From Escherichia phage vB_EcoM-pEK20: a DNA stretch of 64,000 nt. The notes under the pieces are model-generated. The model saw nothing but the letters and a program-made list of their open reading frames with translations, made no database searches and had not been told where the DNA came from. Positions 2,193-55,894 of the stretch are shown piece by piece. The translations under genes and the position numbers were made by a program. The number at the start of each line of letters is the position of its first letter. Position 1 is the stretch's first letter. The stretch is taken from the sequence record MZ868638.1; one strand, given 5' to 3'.

Positions 2193-2420
2193 ATGGCTAA
2201 AGTTAGTATTGATGTCGTTGATTATGAATACACCGAAGAAGTTATTCGCAACCGACACCCTGAAGTTCGTATCGATTCAGTCCAAGATTCCAAGTTCTGG
2301 ACAACTGAGCTTAATCTGAGCGGTCCTTATGAAGTTGTTAAGAAGTTCATGGTTGAAGAATACTGCGAAGGCATGCACCCGGAAGACGCCGAGTTTTATG
2401 TCAATTTGATTAAAAAATAA
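2193..2420 (+). CDS. hypothetical protein
   Basis: ATG ORF, SD agagga upstream. Confidence 0.5.
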   Translation: MAKVSIDVVDYEYTEEVIRNRHPEVRIDSVQDSKFWTTELNLSGPYEVVKKFMVEEYCEGMHPEDAEFYVNLIKK

Positions 2421-2449
2421 TTTACAAACTCTTGAGAGCAGAGTATAAT
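2421..2449 (+). promoter_or_regulatory. early promoter inside repeated stem-loop cassette
   Basis: -35 tttaca 2421-2426, -10 tataat 2444-2449 flanked by inverted repeat gagagc/gctctc. Confidence 0.55.
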
Positions 2450-2468
2450 GCTCTCGTTGGATAATAAA
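2425..2468 (+). repeat. promoter cassette copy A (near-identical to 32539..32584)
   Basis: caaactcttgagagcagagtataatgctctc...ttggataataaa occurs twice in window. Confidence 0.8.
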
Positions 2469-2490
2469 CCACCAATTGAAAGGTAATAAT

Positions 2491-3084
2491 ATGAACACAC
2501 TGAAGAAACTTGTTGAATTCATCCGCACTAAACTGGGTACTGCTATGGCTAAAAATCTGACTGTCGAAGAACAGTATAACGCAGCTGCAGATAAGTTGAT
2601 TACCCAAATCAAAGAACTAAAAACGGCTTCTGTTAAATCTATTAATGAAGAAAAACGTATTCGCGAACTTGTTATTGAAAAGAATAAGCAAGCCGCTTCT
2701 AAGGAACGTGAAATTCGTAAGCTCCTGGCTGAAGGACAAGATGTTACCATGCATGCTAAGCTTGGTCTTCTGTATCGTCGAACTGCCGAACAACTTAATA
2801 CAAAAGCTGACGGGTATGCCGCTATGCGAATTGAAATTGCTCGTAAGGTTGTTGAACTTGACGATGCTCGTCAGAATCTGGCAATCAAACTCGAATACAT
2901 TCGTGAAACTCGAGCAGCTAATGCCCTTGGTATCTCTACGGCTGATGATGTAATTGAAATCGCTGCACTGACTAAGGTTGATATCGAAGACACTCTGACT
3001 CGTGTTGAAACGTTCAATGGTACTCCAGCTGGTGTCGAAACCACTTCTGCTGATGTACAAGAATATATTAACTCTTTGAAATAA
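2491..3084 (+). CDS. hypothetical protein (likely coiled-coil)
   Basis: ATG at M6 of listed TTG-start ORF; heptad-like charged sequence. Confidence 0.5.
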
Positions 3085-3092
3085 AATAATAC

Positions 3093-3114
3093 GGAGGACT
3101 CCGGTCCTCCTTTT
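3093..3114 (+). terminator. rho-independent terminator
   Basis: stem ggaggac 3093-3099 / gtcctcc 3104-3110, loop tccg, then tttt. Confidence 0.7.
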
Positions 3115-3133
3115 GGATAATAAAGGAGTTAAC

Positions 3134-5023: not shown

Positions 5024-5221
5024 ATGTCTCGTGAATTAGATTGTGCTGTACGTACGGCAGTAGCTGCCCTAGAAAACCTGTTCCAAATTGCAACAGAAGA
5101 ACGCGAAGAAGTTACATTATGGATTGAAGATAACGCAGGTCTGAATCTCCAGAATGCAATCTCGGTATCAAATAATAGTATTACTGTTCAAGGCTGGGTA
5201 TCATCTAGTTATTCTTGCTAA
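5024..5221 (+). CDS. small protein, paralog family (copy 3)
   Basis: ATG ORF; C-terminus QGWVSSSYSC. Confidence 0.5.
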   Translation: MSRELDCAVRTAVAALENLFQIATEEREEVTLWIEDNAGLNLQNAISVSNNSITVQGWVSSSYSC

Positions 5222-5225
5222 AACA

Positions 5226-5255
5226 GTTTACAACAAGATAGGGCTATGTTATAGT
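5226..5255 (+). promoter_or_regulatory. early promoter in stem-loop
   Basis: -35 gtttac 5226-5231, -10 tatagt 5250-5255; inverted repeat gatagg 5237-5242 / cctatc 5259-5264. Confidence 0.6.
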
Positions 5256-5283
5256 AGTCCTATCAAATTAAACGGAGACCACA

Positions 5284-5523
5284 ATGATTTATTACGAAAG
5301 TGTTGGAACCAAAGTGGTTGGTAAAACCATTACTCGTGAAAAGTTTGCAAAGATATTCGATATGCGTTATAAAAAATCTGAACACAAAGGCATCCGATTC
5401 GAAGATGCACACTGTACAATTTGCCCTTATAATGAAGACATAAATGGTACAATCGTTCCATTAGTAGAGGCTTCACACGATGACCTCTGGGATGAATATA
5501 ATATCGCATGTCGTGAAATTTAA
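5284..5523 (+). CDS. hypothetical protein
   Basis: ATG ORF with SD ggagacc upstream. Confidence 0.45.
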   Translation: MIYYESVGTKVVGKTITREKFAKIFDMRYKKSEHKGIRFEDAHCTICPYNEDINGTIVPLVEASHDDLWDEYNIACREI

Positions 5524-6504: not shown

Positions 6505-6516
6505 CTTCACAAAACT

Positions 6517-6546
6517 GTTTACAACAAGATAGGACTATGTTATAGT
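6517..6546 (+). promoter_or_regulatory. early promoter in stem-loop
   Basis: -35 gtttac 6517-6522, -10 tatagt 6541-6546; inverted repeat ataggact/agtcctat. Confidence 0.6.
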
Positions 6547-6574
6547 AGTCCTATTAAAACATGAGGAGAATATT

Positions 6575-6880
6575 ATGAAATTAGGCGAAACCAACCGAAT
6601 TGGTCTTTTAACAATATTTGCATCACCTTTTTACGCAGCTCTTTCTGTTGCAGTATTACAAAAGGCTTACGATATGGATGGTGTTCCTGGTTGTATATTC
6701 TTATCACCATTTTTATTATTCGTCGGGGCTTTGTTATTATATGCCACGACTAGTTTTGACCATAATGTCTGGGTTAATTATAAATGTAAATTGTCTGAAG
6801 AAGAACACGCAGAAGCTCGTAAAAAAGCTATTGAATCTACCAATCTAGAAAATTTCATTAAAGAATGTCGAGGAAAATAA
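6575..6880 (+). CDS. small membrane protein with C-terminal ENFIKECR motif
   Basis: ATG ORF, SD gaggag; two hydrophobic segments. Confidence 0.5.
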   Translation: MKLGETNRIGLLTIFASPFYAALSVAVLQKAYDMDGVPGCIFLSPFLLFVGALLLYATTSFDHNVWVNYKCKLSEEEHAEARKKAIESTNLENFIKECRGK

Positions 6881-7568: not shown

Positions 7569-8059
7569 TGATTAACAAAACATATTGGTCTAATATTGAC
7601 GACGGCAATGAAGGTATTTCGTACTATTCGGTGGATTGGACAGGATGTCCATCCTACTTAGTGAAACATATTTGCCAAGAATTTAAAATCGACCAGCCAG
7701 CAGGTATTATTGTGAACAGATACATTAACGGATATCAACCTATCGATGAAGTAATACGAACAACTCAAGCTGATCTTGAAAAGTTTTTCAATAAGTGCCA
7801 ATGGATAACAGGATGGATTATATTTGTACCGTCGGTATGGTTTTTTAGTACTAAAGTAAGTGCCTTTGCCATACCAGATATTATCGCTATCTTATTAGCA
7901 TCTACTATCGTAAGTATTATTGGTGGTATTATTGGTGGAGGTACTATAGGCATCATTATTAATCTTGTTAAAAGTAGTTTACAGGAACGTAAAGACAAGA
8001 TAAAGGCCAAGAATAATGAAGTTGAACGTTTTATTACCGAATGCAGGAATTTGAGATGA
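7568..8059 (+). CDS. membrane protein with C-terminal ERFITECR motif
   Basis: ATG overlapping upstream stop (taATGa); Gly/Ile-rich TM segment. Confidence 0.5.
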   Translation: MINKTYWSNIDDGNEGISYYSVDWTGCPSYLVKHICQEFKIDQPAGIIVNRYINGYQPIDEVIRTTQADLEKFFNKCQWITGWIIFVPSVWFFSTKVSAFAIPDIIAILLASTIVSIIGGIIGGGTIGIIINLVKSSLQERKDKIKAKNNEVERFITECRNLR

Positions 8060-8774: not shown

Positions 8775-9263
8775 ATGAATATATTTGAAATGCTTCGTAA
8801 TGACGAAGGTCTTAGACTGACTTTATACAAAGACACTGAAGGCTTTTGGACGATTGGCATAGGCCATTTAGTAACAAAGAACCCGTCTTTAGCCGTAGCT
8901 AAAGCTGAACTTGACAGAATGATCGGACGTAAATGCAACGGTACAATTACCCTTGATGAGGCTGAAAAGTTATTTAATGAAGACGTTGATAAAGCTGTTC
9001 GCGGAATCTTGGGTAATGCTAAACTTAAACCGGTATATGATTCTTTAGATGCAGTTCGTCGATGTGCATTGGTCAATATGGTCTTCCAAATGGGTGTAGC
9101 AGGCGTCGCTGGTTTTACTAATTCTCTTCGTATGCTTCAACAGAAACGTTGGGACGAAGCGGCAGTAAATCTAGCCCAATCTAAATGGTATCGTCAGACA
9201 CCTAATCGCGCGAAACGCGTAATCTCAACATTTAAAACAGGAACTTGGAAAGCGTATATATGA
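8775..9263 (+). CDS. e: endolysin, T4 lysozyme
   Basis: MNIFEMLR...GHLLTK...[27 protein letters not shown] closely matches T4 gpe; SD gggagg. Confidence 0.95.
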
Positions 9264-12845: not shown

Positions 12846-13144
12846 TGGCTCAAATCCTATCAGGCTTTGGAACTCATTATGAAGCATCTCGACGCATAAC
12901 TGAAAGCAATCCTTTTGGCCTTGTTCCGAAGCACAAGAAAATTCAAAGCCTTGATGACTTTGAGAATCGCCTATGGGCCCTCTTTAATGAGTACAAGGCA
13001 TATCTGAAAGAAGACGCTGACGATTGTCTTGAAGAAGATGAGATTGCGTATTACGAACAACGCCTTGAACAGCTCAAGAACTTCCACCAGGTTCGTGACG
13101 AAGTATCTAAAGCAGTTAAAAAGTTAATTCCTTTCAAAGAGTAG
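12845..13144 (+). CDS. hypothetical protein
   Basis: ATG overlapping upstream stop (TAATGG). Confidence 0.45.
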
Positions 13145-13172
13145 TTTACTTCTCCTCTAGTTGTGTTACTAT
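13144..13172 (+). promoter_or_regulatory. early promoter in stem-loop, upstream of regB
   Basis: -35 gtttac 13144-13149, -10 tactat 13167-13172; inverted repeat tctcctctagttg / caactagaggaga. Confidence 0.65.
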
Positions 13173-13200
13173 AGACCTGTCAACTAGAGGAGAAATCAAA

Positions 13201-21108: not shown

Positions 21109-21396
21109 ATGGATTTTATGCAAAAAATTAAAGCCGCAGTAGAACTCTATGCTCATCGTATGGTTAGTTCTACAATGCAATATAGCGAGGAGGTTCGCCA
21201 GGACTCTTCCTTGAAAGGAAAAACTAAAGCCTTAATTACCTTAGATCGTTTGCAAAAGAATGCCATAGAGATGCTCCAGTACGACAAGGCTGTATATAAG
21301 AAAGAACAGGAAGAGAAACTTAAATCTGAAAAATTACAGAAAATTCCGAAATCGGTTTGGTTCAGTGGAAAAAATACCGAAAAAAGTTTCTTTTAG
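21109..21396 (+). CDS. hypothetical protein
   Basis: ATG ORF. Confidence 0.4.
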   Translation: MDFMQKIKAAVELYAHRMVSSTMQYSEEVRQDSSLKGKTKALITLDRLQKNAIEMLQYDKAVYKKEQEEKLKSEKLQKIPKSVWFSGKNTEKSFF

Positions 21397-21398
21397 TT

Positions 21399-21427
21399 GT
21401 TTACAAGGTCTATAGTTATGTTATTAT
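21399..21427 (+). promoter_or_regulatory. early promoter in stem-loop
   Basis: -35 gtttac 21399-21404, -10 tattat 21422-21427; inverted repeat ggtctatag / tatagacc. Confidence 0.6.
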
Positions 21428-21454
21428 AGACCTATCAACTACTGGAGGTAAAAC

Positions 21455-23040: not shown

Positions 23041-23069
23041 TGTACAACCAAGGATGGTTGGAGTATAAT
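23041..23069 (+). promoter_or_regulatory. early promoter in stem-loop
   Basis: -35 tgtaca, -10 tataat 23064-23069; inverted repeat caacca/tggttg; same cassette as 24036..24065. Confidence 0.5.
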
Positions 23070-23095
23070 AAATTTTTCAACATGAGGAATATAAA

Positions 23096-24031
23096 ATGGC
23101 TTCTATTACACGTAGAGAACTTATCAAAGAATTTACCTCGAACGCATATACCCCAGGACCTAATCCTATCCGTATGCCTGTAAAGACTCCTGAAGAGATT
23201 GAGGAAATCTGTTCATATTATGGGATTAATTCTCGTAAGTTTACTCAATTTGAATGCGTTACTAACACACCCGTTAAAGAGTTCATTAAAAATGGTGAGT
23301 TCAGCCGTTTATTAGCCAAACAGAAACTTCGTAATTTTTGTATTGGCGGTGAAGGACAATATTTCGCTAAGCAGTTCAGGAATAACCTTAACAATCTGAT
23401 GGCCATTGCTTCTCGTATTCGTCCTCAAGCAATTAACATGAAACATTTGAAATATACTTACGATAAGTTAGAAATCATGGTTATCAGTGAGAACGAGTTC
23501 ACTCTTACGTATAAACCTAAGAATGATAACGTTGCTCGTGTATTCCACCAAGCGTTGGAAGTTTTAGGTGATAATATCCACCAGATTAAAGCAATTTATT
23601 CTCGTGAGCTTAATATTATCAACCCTATCAAGAATAAGGGCCATATCGCTATCCAGGCTCGTGTATCTGTTGGTAAAAAGGTTCCTGCGCCATGGTGGCA
23701 CAAAGACTCTGAATACTATCAAAATCTTAAAAAGGAAAATGCAACGTTCGAAGCGTCAATTACTACAACCCCAATTGGCAATGCTGAAGTTCAAGGTGCA
23801 TATTTTACTGCTCCATCTATATACACTTCACCGTCGACTAAACTGGAAATCTCTAACGGTCTTCTTCCTGCCGAAGATTACTATTATAATCAAATCAAAG
23901 CCACTGTGGACCAACTGTCTGTTGAACTTGACAAAGCACAAGCTAAGCTTCGTGATGCTCAACAAGTAGTTACCAAGCTCCAGTTGCAGTACTCTAAACT
24001 TTTTAACGCAATGAATGCATTAAAATCATAA
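23096..24031 (+). CDS. hypothetical protein with C-terminal coiled coil
   Basis: 311-aa ATG ORF. Confidence 0.5.
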   Translation: MASITRRELIKEFTSNAYTPGPNPIRMPVKTPEEIEEICSYYGINSRKFTQFECVTNTPVKEFIKNGEFSRLLAKQKLRNFCIGGEGQYFAKQFRNNLNNLMAIASRIRPQAINMKHLKYTYDKLEIMVISENEFTLTYKPKNDNVARVFHQALEVLGDNIHQIKAIYSRELNIINPIKNKGHIAIQARVSVGKKVPAPWWHKDSEYYQNLKKENATFEASITTTPIGNAEVQGAYFTAPSIYTSPSTKLEISNGLLPAEDYYYNQIKATVDQLSVELDKAQAKLRDAQQVVTKLQLQYSKLFNAMNALKS

Positions 24032-24035
24032 ATCA

Positions 24036-24065
24036 GTTTACAACCAAGGATGGTTGGAGTATAAT
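24036..24065 (+). promoter_or_regulatory. early promoter in stem-loop
   Basis: -35 gtttac 24036-24041, -10 tataat 24060-24065. Confidence 0.6.
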
Positions 24066-24093
24066 CTTTCTATCTTAACGAGAGGAAAATATT

Positions 24094-25038
24094 ATGACAC
24101 GTTCACATTACATTGATTATTTTGCAGGTCTTATCGCTAACGTTCATGCCCAACGTGCTTCTGGTTCATTAGGATTTGATGTTCCACACCGAGTTGTAGT
24201 AAGTGGTATTCTTCGCGATTTTGGTACATACACAGGCCAAGAAAATCATATCTGTAAAGATACTCAGAATGCATATTCTCATTCATTAGGGACACTGCTT
24301 CAATGGTTCAAACGTTCTCGTTTATTATCTTCTACTGTAGCTCGCGATAACATTAAAAACTTTATGAAGCCGAGCTTTATTAAATCTGTGACATCTAAAA
24401 CCGATTTGGTTGAATTCACTATTGTTAATGATGTTAAAAAGACTCATTTGGCTGATTGGTTATCTACCATTCCTGAAACTAAATTTGCTGATAAATTTGC
24501 TTGTGAATTCAATAACCAAGTGAATATGCTTTTTAAACATTCTCGTAAATTATTCACAGGCGGCGATGATCGTACAAATAAAGTTCATGTTAAAGATTGG
24601 GTTACTGCAGTATTCAAACCAACCGGTAATGGTAACGCATCATTATCAATTGATATCCAGGTTCCTTATTACTACTCACGTAATCTCGGTACCATGAAAG
24701 CCGAAGAAATTAATAAGCACAACAAAACCATTCGTTCGCTGTCTTATAAACTTCGCATGATGTTAAGAATCATGGACGTGGTAGAAATGTATGATGAAAC
24801 CGAAGATAATGGTTCAATGTTATACAGTTCTCGCATTCAAATTAAGTTGAAGAACCCTAACGAGTATAAGCCTATTAAAGAGCCTAAAGCAGAAAAAGTT
24901 GATAACTTAAGAGAAGAACGCGAATATCTCAAATCTCGTCTGAAAGAAGTCGAAGCCCAGATTGCAGAACAAACTAAATCGTTAAAAGCTCTGAATGCGA
25001 AAGCGGATGGCTTACGAAATGCCATTGAGGTGTTATAA
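24094..25038 (+). CDS. hypothetical protein with C-terminal coiled coil
   Basis: 314-aa ATG ORF. Confidence 0.5.
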   Translation: MTRSHYIDYFAGLIANVHAQRASGSLGFDVPHRVVVSGILRDFGTYTGQENHICKDTQNAYSHSLGTLLQWFKRSRLLSSTVARDNIKNFMKPSFIKSVTSKTDLVEFTIVNDVKKTHLADWLSTIPETKFADKFACEFNNQVNMLFKHSRKLFTGGDDRTNKVHVKDWVTAVFKPTGNGNASLSIDIQVPYYYSRNLGTMKAEEINKHNKTIRSLSYKLRMMLRIMDVVEMYDETEDNGSMLYSSRIQIKLKNPNEYKPIKEPKAEKVDNLREEREYLKSRLKEVEAQIAEQTKSLKALNAKADGLRNAIEVL

Positions 25039-26493: not shown

Positions 26494-26664
26494 ATGCAAG
26501 TTAAATTATTGTACCGTTTATTAAAAAATGGCAAGCATGATTGGTATTTGCTTATTAAAACCGATCCGAATTTTTTCTCTGGACAACCATTTACAGTTCG
26601 TCCTACTAAACGTCAGCTTCGCAAAGCTAAACGTTCTCATCGTAACTTTTATAGAGAATATTGA
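26494..26664 (+). CDS. small basic protein, RPTKRQ-motif family (copy 1)
   Basis: C-terminus VRPTKRQLRKAKRSHRNFY. Confidence 0.4.
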   Translation: MQVKLLYRLLKNGKHDWYLLIKTDPNFFSGQPFTVRPTKRQLRKAKRSHRNFYREY

Positions 26665-27088: not shown

Positions 27089-27268
27089 ATGAAAACTGCA
27101 TTATTTTTTGGCGAAAGAACAAACGGTCAAAAATCTTGGAAATTTGTTATAATTGGTGCTCCAAACAATCCGAACATGAGGACTTCAATCATTTCGGTAA
27201 CACGTCCTACTAAAAGAATGATTCGCCAATACAAACGTTTTCATCGAGACTTTTATAACGTTTACTAA
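27089..27268 (+). CDS. small basic protein, RPTKRQ-motif family (copy 2)
   Basis: 59-aa ORF not in track; C-terminus TRPTKRMIRQYKRFHRDFY. Confidence 0.35.
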   Translation: MKTALFFGERTNGQKSWKFVIIGAPNNPNMRTSIISVTRPTKRMIRQYKRFHRDFYNVY

Positions 27269-32231: not shown

Positions 32232-32294
32232 TAATGTACAACGATAGGAAGACGTGTTATTATCTTCCTATCGTCTTAAAATGAGGAAAATATC

Positions 32295-32534
32295 ATGGAA
32301 CAAGAATTAGACGTTATTACATCGAAAAAACGTCTTGAAGTCGTAGTGAATGGCTCAACTATTAAGTTTGTATATGACACTTTAACTGATGCTATTACCG
32401 TTAGTTGTGGTGGAAAGGCTTTTAGTCTAGATTCTACTGAAAACAAATACCCGTTCTATAAAGGTATCTTTGATATGGGTGTTGATATCAGTGTTCGTCA
32501 AGCAAACTATTTACATTATCTTATCACGGAATAA
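32295..32534 (+). CDS. hypothetical protein
   Basis: ATG ORF, SD gagga; upstream inverted repeat gacgataggaaga/tcttcctatcgtc. Confidence 0.45.
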   Translation: MEQELDVITSKKRLEVVVNGSTIKFVYDTLTDAITVSCGGKAFSLDSTENKYPFYKGIFDMGVDISVRQANYLHYLITE

Positions 32535-32563
32535 TGCACAAACTCTTGAGAGCAGAGTATAAT
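32535..32563 (+). promoter_or_regulatory. early promoter inside repeated stem-loop cassette
   Basis: -35 tgcaca, -10 tataat 32558-32563. Confidence 0.5.
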
Positions 32564-32584
32564 GCTCTCTCATTGGATAATAAA
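32539..32584 (+). repeat. promoter cassette copy B (near-identical to 2425..2468)
   Basis: caaactcttgagagcagagtataatgctctc shared with 2425-2455. Confidence 0.8.
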
Positions 32585-32602
32585 ATAACCGAGGAAAATA
32601 AT

Positions 32603-32935
32603 ATGTCTACTAAAATCAAAAACGTAGTTAATTCTTTCGCTTTCGATAAAGTTGTTGCTCTTCTGGAATCCGGCAATATTGTTACTCCTCAAGTCCTTGA
32701 CGCGTGGGAATTCCGTCTTTATGAAATCATGCAAAAACACGACCAGAAAATTGGACGTAATTCTATTCGTGAAATTCTAGTACAATATATTCTTTCTGAA
32801 TTTGACGTTGCTGCATTTGGTGTTGAATCTAAAGCTTATCAGAAACATGAAATCTCTGAAAAGACTATCCGTCGTATGAAAAATCAACGTAAGAAAAAAT
32901 TCGTTGACCTGAAAATTGTTAAGGCGGTAAAATGA
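32603..32935 (+). CDS. hypothetical protein
   Basis: ATG at M24 of listed ORF, SD gagga. Confidence 0.45.
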   Translation: MSTKIKNVVNSFAFDKVVALLESGNIVTPQVLDAWEFRLYEIMQKHDQKIGRNSIREILVQYILSEFDVAAFGVESKAYQKHEISEKTIRRMKNQRKKKFVDLKIVKAVK

Positions 32936-54744: not shown

Positions 54745-55119
54745 ATGAATATGTCTCAAGCAATTTTTACTGCAATCACCGAAAACACAACTGTTGAAGT
54801 AGTTTCTCCGCTGGCAACCTACGTTATTCTTGCTCCTAAAACTATTGTATCTCGTATGGAAAACATGGGCAAACGTATCGTACAAATTGTTGGAGCCGGA
54901 AATCAAAAACTTGATTATCTGCGAACCATCAAAGCTTATGAACATTTCCAACTCGAAAAAGGTTCTCCTATCCAGGTAGAACTCGTAAATGGTGATATTG
55001 TTCGAGCAATGTTCCATCATTTCTATGCATTGAATGACCCATCTAAAGCGGTTCGTTTAATTGCATACGACGCAAACCAAAACGAAATCAACGCAGATGT
55101 ATCTAAATTACGTTTTTAA
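54745..55119 (+). CDS. hypothetical protein
   Basis: ATG ORF, SD agagga. Confidence 0.5.
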   Translation: MNMSQAIFTAITENTTVEVVSPLATYVILAPKTIVSRMENMGKRIVQIVGAGNQKLDYLRTIKAYEHFQLEKGSPIQVELVNGDIVRAMFHHFYALNDPSKAVRLIAYDANQNEINADVSKLRF

Positions 55120-55148
55120 GTTTACTTCTCCAGTAGTTGTGTTATTAT
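55120..55148 (+). promoter_or_regulatory. early promoter in stem-loop
   Basis: -35 gtttac 55120-55125, -10 tattat 55143-55148; inverted repeat ctccagtagttg / caactactggag. Confidence 0.65.
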
Positions 55149-55174
55149 AGACCTATCAACTACTGGAGAACAAA

Positions 55175-55681: not shown

Positions 55682-55894
55682 ATGTATTCAACTGTGTTTA
55701 AACCATCAACATACGAATTTGCATCAACTACACAATGGAAAGCTCTTATTCTGGAAGGATGGGAACTAATGATGGACTGTGAAGCATCTGAAAAGTTTCC
55801 ACACGGCAAAGTGGACTTCGTTAAATTTGCTGTACGTCCGACTAAACGACAGATTCGTCAAGAAAAACGCAAATTTCGCAAAAGTTTAAAATAA
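55682..55894 (+). CDS. small basic protein, RPTKRQ-motif family (copy 3)
   Basis: C-terminus VRPTKRQIRQEKRKFRKSLK. Confidence 0.4.
   Translation: MYSTVFKPSTYEFASTTQWKALILEGWELMMDCEASEKFPHGKVDFVKFAVRPTKRQIRQEKRKFRKSLK

Follow-up and report, generated by a model that had tools for sequence, protein, structure and literature searches.

Why should two short stretches of one phage genome, some 30 kb apart and each placed ahead of a different gene, be nearly identical in sequence? The window, meaning the whole stretch of 64,000 nucleotides that was analysed, contains two such stretches, referred to here as copy 1 and copy 2. The first-pass annotation had reported about 45 bp of near-identity at 2425-2468 and 32539-32584, and these coordinates proved right to within 1 nt. 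The copies share ACAAACTCTTGAGAGCAGAGTATAATGCTCTC at 32 of 32 positions, which is followed by a 1- versus 3-nt difference (G in copy 1, TCA in copy 2) and then by the leader TTGGATAATAAA at 12 of 12 positions. The likeness has its left limit at about -30, where the -35 hexamers part (TTTACA versus TGCACA), and its right limit at about +13. When the window was searched with a 27-nt core, allowing up to 3 mismatches, exactly two sites were recovered, namely copies 1 and 2, and the control of 100 dinucleotide-preserving shuffles gave 0 matches.

The window belongs to a T4-type myovirus of the RB69 group (Straboviridae, Tevenvirinae, Mosigvirus), and segments of it have 97-99.8% DNA identity to the Mosigvirus phages DCP548, MM02, JK45, and JQD51. 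By synteny with the annotated phage ChristianSchoenbein, it spans the region from just past the tRNA cluster to near srd and carries, in order and all on the + strand, e, denV, regB, tk, rI, nrdC, 49, nrdD/G/H, the 55.x genes, 55, 47, 46, and 45. In RB69, 57 early promoters have been predicted (PMC1524935).

Both copies have the same order of elements, which is upstream TAA, -35, spacer, -10, conserved leader, Shine-Dalgarno sequence (SD), and ATG; in copy 1 the TAA abuts the -35. A scan against the sigma-70 consensus gave 11/12 matches for copy 1 and 10/12 for copy 2, with a perfect -10 (TATAAT) in both; the -35 of copy 1 is good and that of copy 2 weak. Copy 1 has an A-tract upstream, and an AT-rich region is present 5' of the cassettes, which is weakly informative in a genome that is itself AT-rich. 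Copies 1 and 2 are predicted from these features to be immediate-early sigma-70 promoters, their activity and start sites being deduced from the sequence. This reading is based on the consensus matches, the 17-nt spacer, the position between a stop codon and an SD with ATG, and homology to the T4 motB upstream element, for which the phage record NBG2 has a promoter annotation, and the earlier description of the stretches as promoter cassettes was borne out on the same grounds.

T4-type early promoters carry an extended consensus, and the 'uber' form of the T4 early promoter (Pe) consists of an UP element, the -35 GTTTAC, TGn, and the -10 TATAAT (PMC2988021). The twin resembles Pe in its GTTTAC-type -35, 17-nt spacer, TATAAT, A-rich upstream region, and early gene immediately following (PMC2988021, PMC1524935), and the element upstream of T4 motB belongs to the sequence family of the twin. 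It differs from Pe in that the TGn extended -10, which is typical of T4 early promoters, is absent from copy 1 and copy 2, in the weak -35 of copy 2, and in an inverted repeat around the -10 that covaries across the family and does not appear in published consensus descriptions. No experiment that maps the early promoter of T4 motB was found in the literature searched.

The layout was also compared with that of the PeSLs (promoter-early stem-loops) of T4-like phages, in which, by definition, a stop codon and an AT-rich region precede a sigma-70 promoter with a stem-loop, and an SD and an ATG come after it; the stem-loop is mostly between the -35 and -10 or overlaps the -10, and ORFan indels adjoin the element (PMC2839356; PMC4122927). 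These elements have been described in RB49/phi1 (Arbiol et al. 2010, PMC2839356) and in T4/PST and KVP40/nt-1 (Comeau et al. 2014, PMC4122927). Promoter activity and attenuation or termination by the stem-loop were shown only for the PeSLs of RB49/phi1 (PMC2839356), which were also shown to form mini-circles, and modular shuffling through PeSLs has already been described (PMC2839356, PMC4122927). Every sequence-level feature of a PeSL was found in copies 1 and 2. The coordinates of the cassettes and of the features beside them are given in Table 1.

Table 1. Coordinates of the two cassettes and of the features beside them in the window.
Feature	Position	Strand	Description
frd.3-like gene, upstream of copy 1	2193..2420	+	Pfam Phage_FRD3, E=2.3e-38
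Upstream stop, copy 1	2418-2420		TAA
Predicted promoter, copy 1	2421..2449	+	-35 TTTACA (2421-2426), 17-nt spacer, -10 TATAAT (2444-2449)
32-nt identity, copy 1	2424-2455		ACAAACTCTTGAGAGCAGAGTATAATGCTCTC
Predicted stem-loop, copy 1	2434..2455	+	GAGAGCA (2434-2440), loop GAGTATAA, TGCTCTC (2449-2455)
Leader, copy 1	2457..2468	+	TTGGATAATAAA; about +2 to +13 of the predicted transcript; then SD AAAGG (2479-2483)
SD and ATG, copy 1	2479-2493		
T4 e.6 homolog, downstream of copy 1	2491..3084	+	197 aa; tblastn 88% identity to T4 e.6 locus; phrog_1203
True terminator hairpin	3093-3110		GGAGGAC tccg GTCCTCC TTTT
Third exact leader	3113-3124		TTGGATAATAAA; ahead of ATG 3134 of the next gene (e.5 position by synteny)
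PeSL-A, upstream of ORF79	32234..32274	+	-35 TGTACA, -10 TATTAT, 12-bp stem ACGATAGGAAGA/TCTTCCTATCGT
ORF79, upstream of copy 2	32295..32534	+	79-codon ORFan module between PeSL-A and copy 2
Upstream stop, copy 2	32532-32534		TAA
Long ORF with gp55.2 extension	32534-32935		Probable annotation trap; in frame with gp55.2
Predicted promoter, copy 2	32535..32563	+	-35 TGCACA (degenerate, at junction), 17-nt spacer, -10 TATAAT (32558-32563)
32-nt identity, copy 2	32538-32569		ACAAACTCTTGAGAGCAGAGTATAATGCTCTC
Predicted stem-loop, copy 2	32548..32569	+	GAGAGCA / TGCTCTC, same as copy 1
Leader, copy 2	32573..32584	+	TTGGATAATAAA; then SD GAGG (32591-32594)
SD and ATG, copy 2	32591-32605		
gp55.2 homolog, downstream of copy 2	32603..32935	+	75% identity to T4 gp55.2, E=2e-63; Pfam DUF7570

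The genes downstream of the two copies had been described as unrelated, and this held, as the e.6 and gp55.2 homologs gave no BLASTP alignment at E<=100; the upstream proteins are unrelated as well (E=1.3). T4 gp55.2 has been reported as an inhibitor of host topoisomerase I (PMC4396842). Upstream of ORF79, the RNA of PeSL-A folds at -18.4 kcal/mol (z=-4.5). The third exact leader, which is located directly 3' of the true terminator hairpin, looks like either a promoter-less remnant of the twin cassette or a reused leader.

An ATG overlapping the TAA of ORF79 (TAATG) opens an in-frame 23-codon N-terminal extension of gp55.2, and the resulting ORF runs through the entire copy 2 cassette. The extension occurs only in the allele that has ATGCAC plus the extra 2 nt 3' of the stem, and in the annotation of JQD51 a longer ORF of this type was taken as the CDS. 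This long ORF is probably an annotation trap, and its product might conceivably be made as an isoform through translational coupling. Recognition of the cassettes provides more reliable transcription units and a warning against ORFs that are drawn through them, such as 32534-32935.

A 7-bp inverted repeat straddles the -10 of each copy, with the 5' arm in the spacer and the 3' arm extending from -7 to about -1; in copy 1 the 3' arm begins with the last T of the -10. The calculated RNA fold energy of copy 1 is -12.9 kcal/mol (z=-3.7), and that of copy 2 is -11.4 kcal/mol. Because the 3' arm ends at about -1, the hairpin would be absent from RNA begun at the cassette's own promoter and present only in read-through RNA. 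Family members for comparison were read directly from annotated records and from IMG/VR loci. Among 20 distinct members from six genera, 97.1% of the stem cells are paired, whereas a control in which the 3' partner was slid by 1-3 columns gave just 43-49% pairing. Four of the 7 stem pairs are changed on both sides, one of them taking GC, AU, CG, and UA among the 20 variants, and most of the cells that depart from Watson-Crick pairing are G.T on the sense strand, A.C occurring once. The stem is thus under selection for pairing across the family.

The same covariation bears on the possibility that the inverted repeat is an operator for a dimeric phage or host DNA-binding protein that co-regulates e.6, 55.2, ndd, and motB. 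A palindrome over the -10 occupies a classical repressor position, the same element recurs ahead of a small set of early genes, and the shut-off of T4 early promoters is not fully explained (PMC2988021), but it is the complementarity of the arms that is conserved and not their sequence, and G.T wobble is tolerated. Covarying arms with wobble therefore point to a nucleic-acid structure rather than to sequence-specific protein contacts, and unrelated stems occupy the corresponding position at many other promoters of the window, so that an operator is regarded as very unlikely.

In 23 of 24 family sequences, which are related and not independent of each other, the sense fold exceeds the antisense fold in stability. 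Since no such strand asymmetry was seen across all promoters of the window, where the two strands give folds of equal stability (p=0.67), an RNA-level role for the stem is likely but not established. As an intergenic stem-loop immediately 3' of a stop codon, the structure resembles an intrinsic terminator. It differs in having no U-tract behind the stem, and the true terminator is located 640 bp downstream. A terminator scan found no terminator-like site at either cassette, where the tail after the stem is GTTGGATAAT or TCATTGGATA, and a role as a classical intrinsic terminator is therefore unlikely. An Rfam search of the whole window gave 0 matches at the gathering score. In T4, the genes e (lysozyme), soc, 49, and I-TevI have a promoter within a hairpin, and in longer transcripts the ribosome-binding site is masked by this hairpin. 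The twin is similar to these genes in that the promoter lies between the hairpin arms and the hairpin forms only in read-through RNA, the 5' arm being missing from promoter-proximal RNA, but its 3' arm ends before +1 and makes no contact with the SD. As the 3' arm stops short of the SD, translational masking is not expected.

A BLAST search with the 58-nt sequence of copy 1 had matches in 748 phage records, and each Mosigvirus genome was matched at 3-4 places. Three Mosigvirus copies were located, ahead of e.6, 55.2, and ndd, as compared with the 3-4 matching places per GenBank record. The Mosigvirus motB promoter was considered as a fourth copy and rejected, as motB of JK45 has a cassette of a different subfamily. 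In at least six genera of the Tevenvirinae, the twin-type cassette was found ahead of one or more of e.6, 55.2, ndd, and motB. It is located ahead of motB in Tequatrovirus, including T4 (annotated 'promoter' in NBG2), ahead of 55.2, an ORF after pseT.2, and, in diverged form, e.6 in Dhakavirus, ahead of motB and ndd in Gaprivervirus (VR7 group), ahead of 55.2 and ndd in Kanagawavirus, and ahead of 55.2 in Marfavirus. Both motB and e.6 have the twin-type cassette in some genera and another early promoter in others; T4 e.6 has a different promoter, and in T4 the gap ahead of 55.2 is just 13 nt. Conservation across genera is high for the -10, for the spacer segment AAACTCTTG, and for the leader, which takes the related form GGA(T/G)NA(T/C)AAA outside Mosigvirus, and part of this invariance is ascertainment, as the search pattern fixed ACAAACTCTTG and TATAAT.

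This distribution was weighed against the idea of an autonomous mobile promoter, whether MITE-like or a promoter-carrying insertion, that was recently duplicated or transposed to a site 30 kb off. Such an element would account for exact 32+12-nt identity ahead of unrelated genes and for an inverted repeat inside the element. However, both sites are occupied in every Mosigvirus examined, with no empty sites in approximately 160 Mosigvirus records, and orthologous sites are occupied elsewhere (55.2 in Dhakavirus, Kanagawavirus, and Marfavirus; e.6 in Dhakavirus). Furthermore, the inverted repeat lies within the element, on both sides of the -10, instead of at its ends, there is no target-site duplication, the identity merely decays at -30 and +13, and no transposase-like gene is associated with the copies. 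A recent jump of this kind is considered extremely improbable, and classification of the cassette as a transposable element or MITE was rejected on the basis of the internal inverted repeat, the lack of flank duplication, and the occupancy of the sites across genera.

The near-identity of copies 1 and 2 is instead attributed to conservation combined with recombinational homogenisation among resident cassettes. Within Mosigvirus, the stems at e.6, 55.2, and ndd are all GAGAGCA/TGCTCTC; motB and ndd of VR20 both have GGGGTC/GACCCC; and 55.2 and ndd of Kanagawavirus both have GAGGACA/TGTCCTC. Orthologous copies, in contrast, differ from genus to genus. Sameness within a genus together with ortholog differences between genera amounts to concerted evolution. 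The 55.2 copy is itself polymorphic in Mosigvirus, where GAGAGC-AGAG-TATAAT-GCTCTC is found in some phages and GAGAGA-TGA(A/G)-TATAAT-TCTCTC in others, the changes again being compensatory. The GAGAGA/TCTCTC variant may be the derived one, in which case copy 2 of the window may simply represent the ancestral state.

Close relatives were compared for traces of the exchange itself. Over 449 nt around the cassette, the phages ST0 and ChristianSchoenbein differ by just 4 changes, all of which fall in a 12-nt part of the core, a clustering with a simulated P of approximately 6e-5, and this short patch is a product of recombination. A second candidate for conversion, VR20 versus VR25/VR26 at motB, was set aside as weak, given that these genomes are 6-11% different overall. 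Between the window and ST0, identity is 97% in 55.4-55.3, 95% in PeSL-A, 72.5% in ORF79, 90% in the copy 2 cassette, 98.9% in 55.2, and 99% beyond 55.2. Between the window and UGJNEcP1, PeSL-A is 55.6% identical and its two flanks are 97-98% identical. It follows from these two patterns that ORF and cassette have each been swapped as units. The ORF79 allele has been exchanged between close relatives, and the gene is absent from AV112, Dhakavirus, and T4; in AV112, JS10, WG01, and Dhakaviruses, which lack it, the cassette is located directly between 55.3 and 55.2. As for 32505-32615, 126 of 161 Mosigvirus records are homologous to it only from the left edge of the cassette onward. In the metagenomic relative L172, an extra promoter and an 82-codon ORF are inserted at copy 1, and the junctions of the insert lie in the -35/ACAAAC region. 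A supposed replacement of the downstream gene between L182 and L166 was rejected, since it is a 36-nt indel within the same gene.

An account without any exchange would have the identity arise purely from purifying selection on an optimal promoter, through shared ancestry or convergence. The high conservation of the -10, the spacer segment, and the leader across genera and the known extended T4-type consensus (PMC2988021) are in its favor. It is nevertheless unlikely because the stem, which is free to vary as long as it is paired, has one arbitrary variant per genus and different variants in orthologs, because 4 changes form a patch in 449 otherwise identical nucleotides, because homology breakpoints fall exactly at cassette edges, and because motB and e.6 have other promoter types in other genera.

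The first-pass annotation had further concluded that the cassette moves independently of coding sequence. Independent reassortment was upheld, given that one stem is shared at e.6, 55.2, and ndd, that motB and e.6 switch promoters, and that a core-confined patch separates close relatives. The term 'movement' was an overstatement, as both sites are old and have neither transposon-like ends nor target-site duplications. Homologous recombination or gene conversion among cassettes already in place, together with shuffling of the intervening ORFs, fits as the mechanism.

Taken as a whole, it is highly probable that the two stretches are members of one PeSL subfamily in an RB69-like phage, serving as early promoter, read-through hairpin, and recombination substrate that is kept alike. 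Each copy would act as an immediate-early sigma-70 promoter right behind the upstream stop codon and drive the next gene, the e.6 homolog in one case and the gp55.2 homolog in the other. In read-through transcripts of the upstream gene, the hairpin would most likely be an attenuator or a protective 3'-end hairpin. With the cassette of approximately 45-60 bp present at several loci, the copies would provide a substrate for homologous recombination, through which copies in one genome would be kept identical by gene conversion, and ORFs and the cassettes themselves would be inserted, deleted, or exchanged at cassette boundaries.

The likeness to published PeSLs extends from the layout between stop and start codon, with the N17 spacer and the stem-loop between the boxes or over the -10, to the location in the hyperplastic early region, ahead of small ORFs and in many copies per genome. 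It also includes ORF insertions, deletions, and replacements between close relatives, breakpoints within the cassette, and a chimeric or degenerate -35 at junctions. Among the differences, the twin stem is short (7 bp, of which 4 are G-C) and unlike the polyG/polyC stems of RB49 PeSLs, Mosigvirus and this subfamily are absent from the two PeSL studies (PMC2839356 and PMC4122927), and the trans-genus conservation of one subfamily together with its concerted evolution is documented here and not in those studies. The PeSL model itself is known, and the Mosigvirus subfamily is an addition to a known class and not a new kind of system. The published model of PeSLs as recombination joints that shuffle small early genes holds in RB69-like phages as well, and the evidence is cleaner than in the original descriptions in that it comprises cross-genus stem covariation, concerted evolution, a short conversion patch, and cassette-bounded ORF modules. 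The cassettes also give a guide to the sites at which an insertion engineered into a T4-like therapeutic phage would probably be tolerated or prove unstable.

The genes behind the subfamily raise a further and rather doubtful possibility, namely that it marks a small ancient set of immediate-early host-takeover genes (ndd, motB, 55.2, and e.6) that share a regulatory property. Ndd is named for nucleoid disruption, and MotB is a DNA binder that copurifies with H-NS. Ndd, MotB, and gp55.2 all act on host DNA or its topology, and e.6 has no known function. If such a set existed, the hairpin and the leader GGA(T/G)NA(T/C)AAA could impose one timing or dose on it, for instance by way of an RNA processing or attenuation signal that the genes have in common, and gene conversion would hold the copies matched within each genome.

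The other promoters of the window were surveyed in the same manner. Candidates with promoter, SD, and ATG numbered 41 on the coding (+) strand versus 3 on the - strand, and approximately 33-41 promoter-like sites were counted on the coding strand. At 15 of 33 curated promoter sites the fold has z<-2, as compared with 9% of random 52-mers, and the mean fold z is -1.79 at window promoters versus -0.23 for random 52-mers (p=3.5e-5). The twin does not stand alone in the window, as other promoter pairs are just as similar: the pair 5227/6518 is identical at 42/44 positions, the pair 1358/13140 at 38/44, and the twin at 38/44, the median being 20/44. The 5227/6518 and 1358/13140 pairs are also located ahead of genes for unrelated proteins.

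The most similar pair (5220-5287 and 6511-6578) has an 11-bp stem around the -10, GATAGG(G/A)CTAT / (G)TAGTCCTAT(C/T), and promoters of this type are also found at 2129, 17220, and 56632. In another subfamily (13140-13192, 21395-21447, and 55116-55168), a 12-nt spacer segment is exactly complementary to the downstream Shine-Dalgarno region (CTCCTCTAGTTG...CAACTAGAGGAG; CTCCAGTAGTTG...CAACTACTGGAG). The two members tested, 13140 and 55116, fold at approximately -20 kcal/mol, and the SD of this subfamily would be masked in read-through RNA and free in RNA from the local promoter. A compensated version of the spacer/SD pairing is found in JK45 upstream of the gene ending at 7876. A third subfamily (TTTACAACCAAGGATGGTTGGAGTATAAT) is located at 23041-23096 and 24037-24097, ahead of two genes of approximately 311 aa that have no detectable similarity to each other. 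It is also found upstream of motB in JK45 (L196) at 8820, the gene that has the twin's cassette in T4.

In six unrelated marine viral contigs from IMG/VR (L139, L144, L148, L164, L175, and L176), GATTTACAAACTCTTGAA(A/G)ATGTG(G/A)TATAAT is located ahead of a conserved gene. The -35 and the first part of the spacer are like those of the cassette family and the stem is not, and the likeness may be due to chance or to a distant relative of the family.

Two further repeats were noted in the coding DNA of the window. Gene starts at 683, 9260, 10016, 10200, and 10541 share the recurring sequence ATGAAAAC(A/C)TAT..GAATTTAT, which suggests a paralogous family of small early genes, three of them nearly in tandem. 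A 55-nt direct repeat (CGTCCTACTAAACG...CGTAACTTTTATA) is found at 26599-26653, 27203-27257, and 55835-55889, with copies that are 65-78% identical, and it probably encodes a basic C-terminal motif common to several small proteins.
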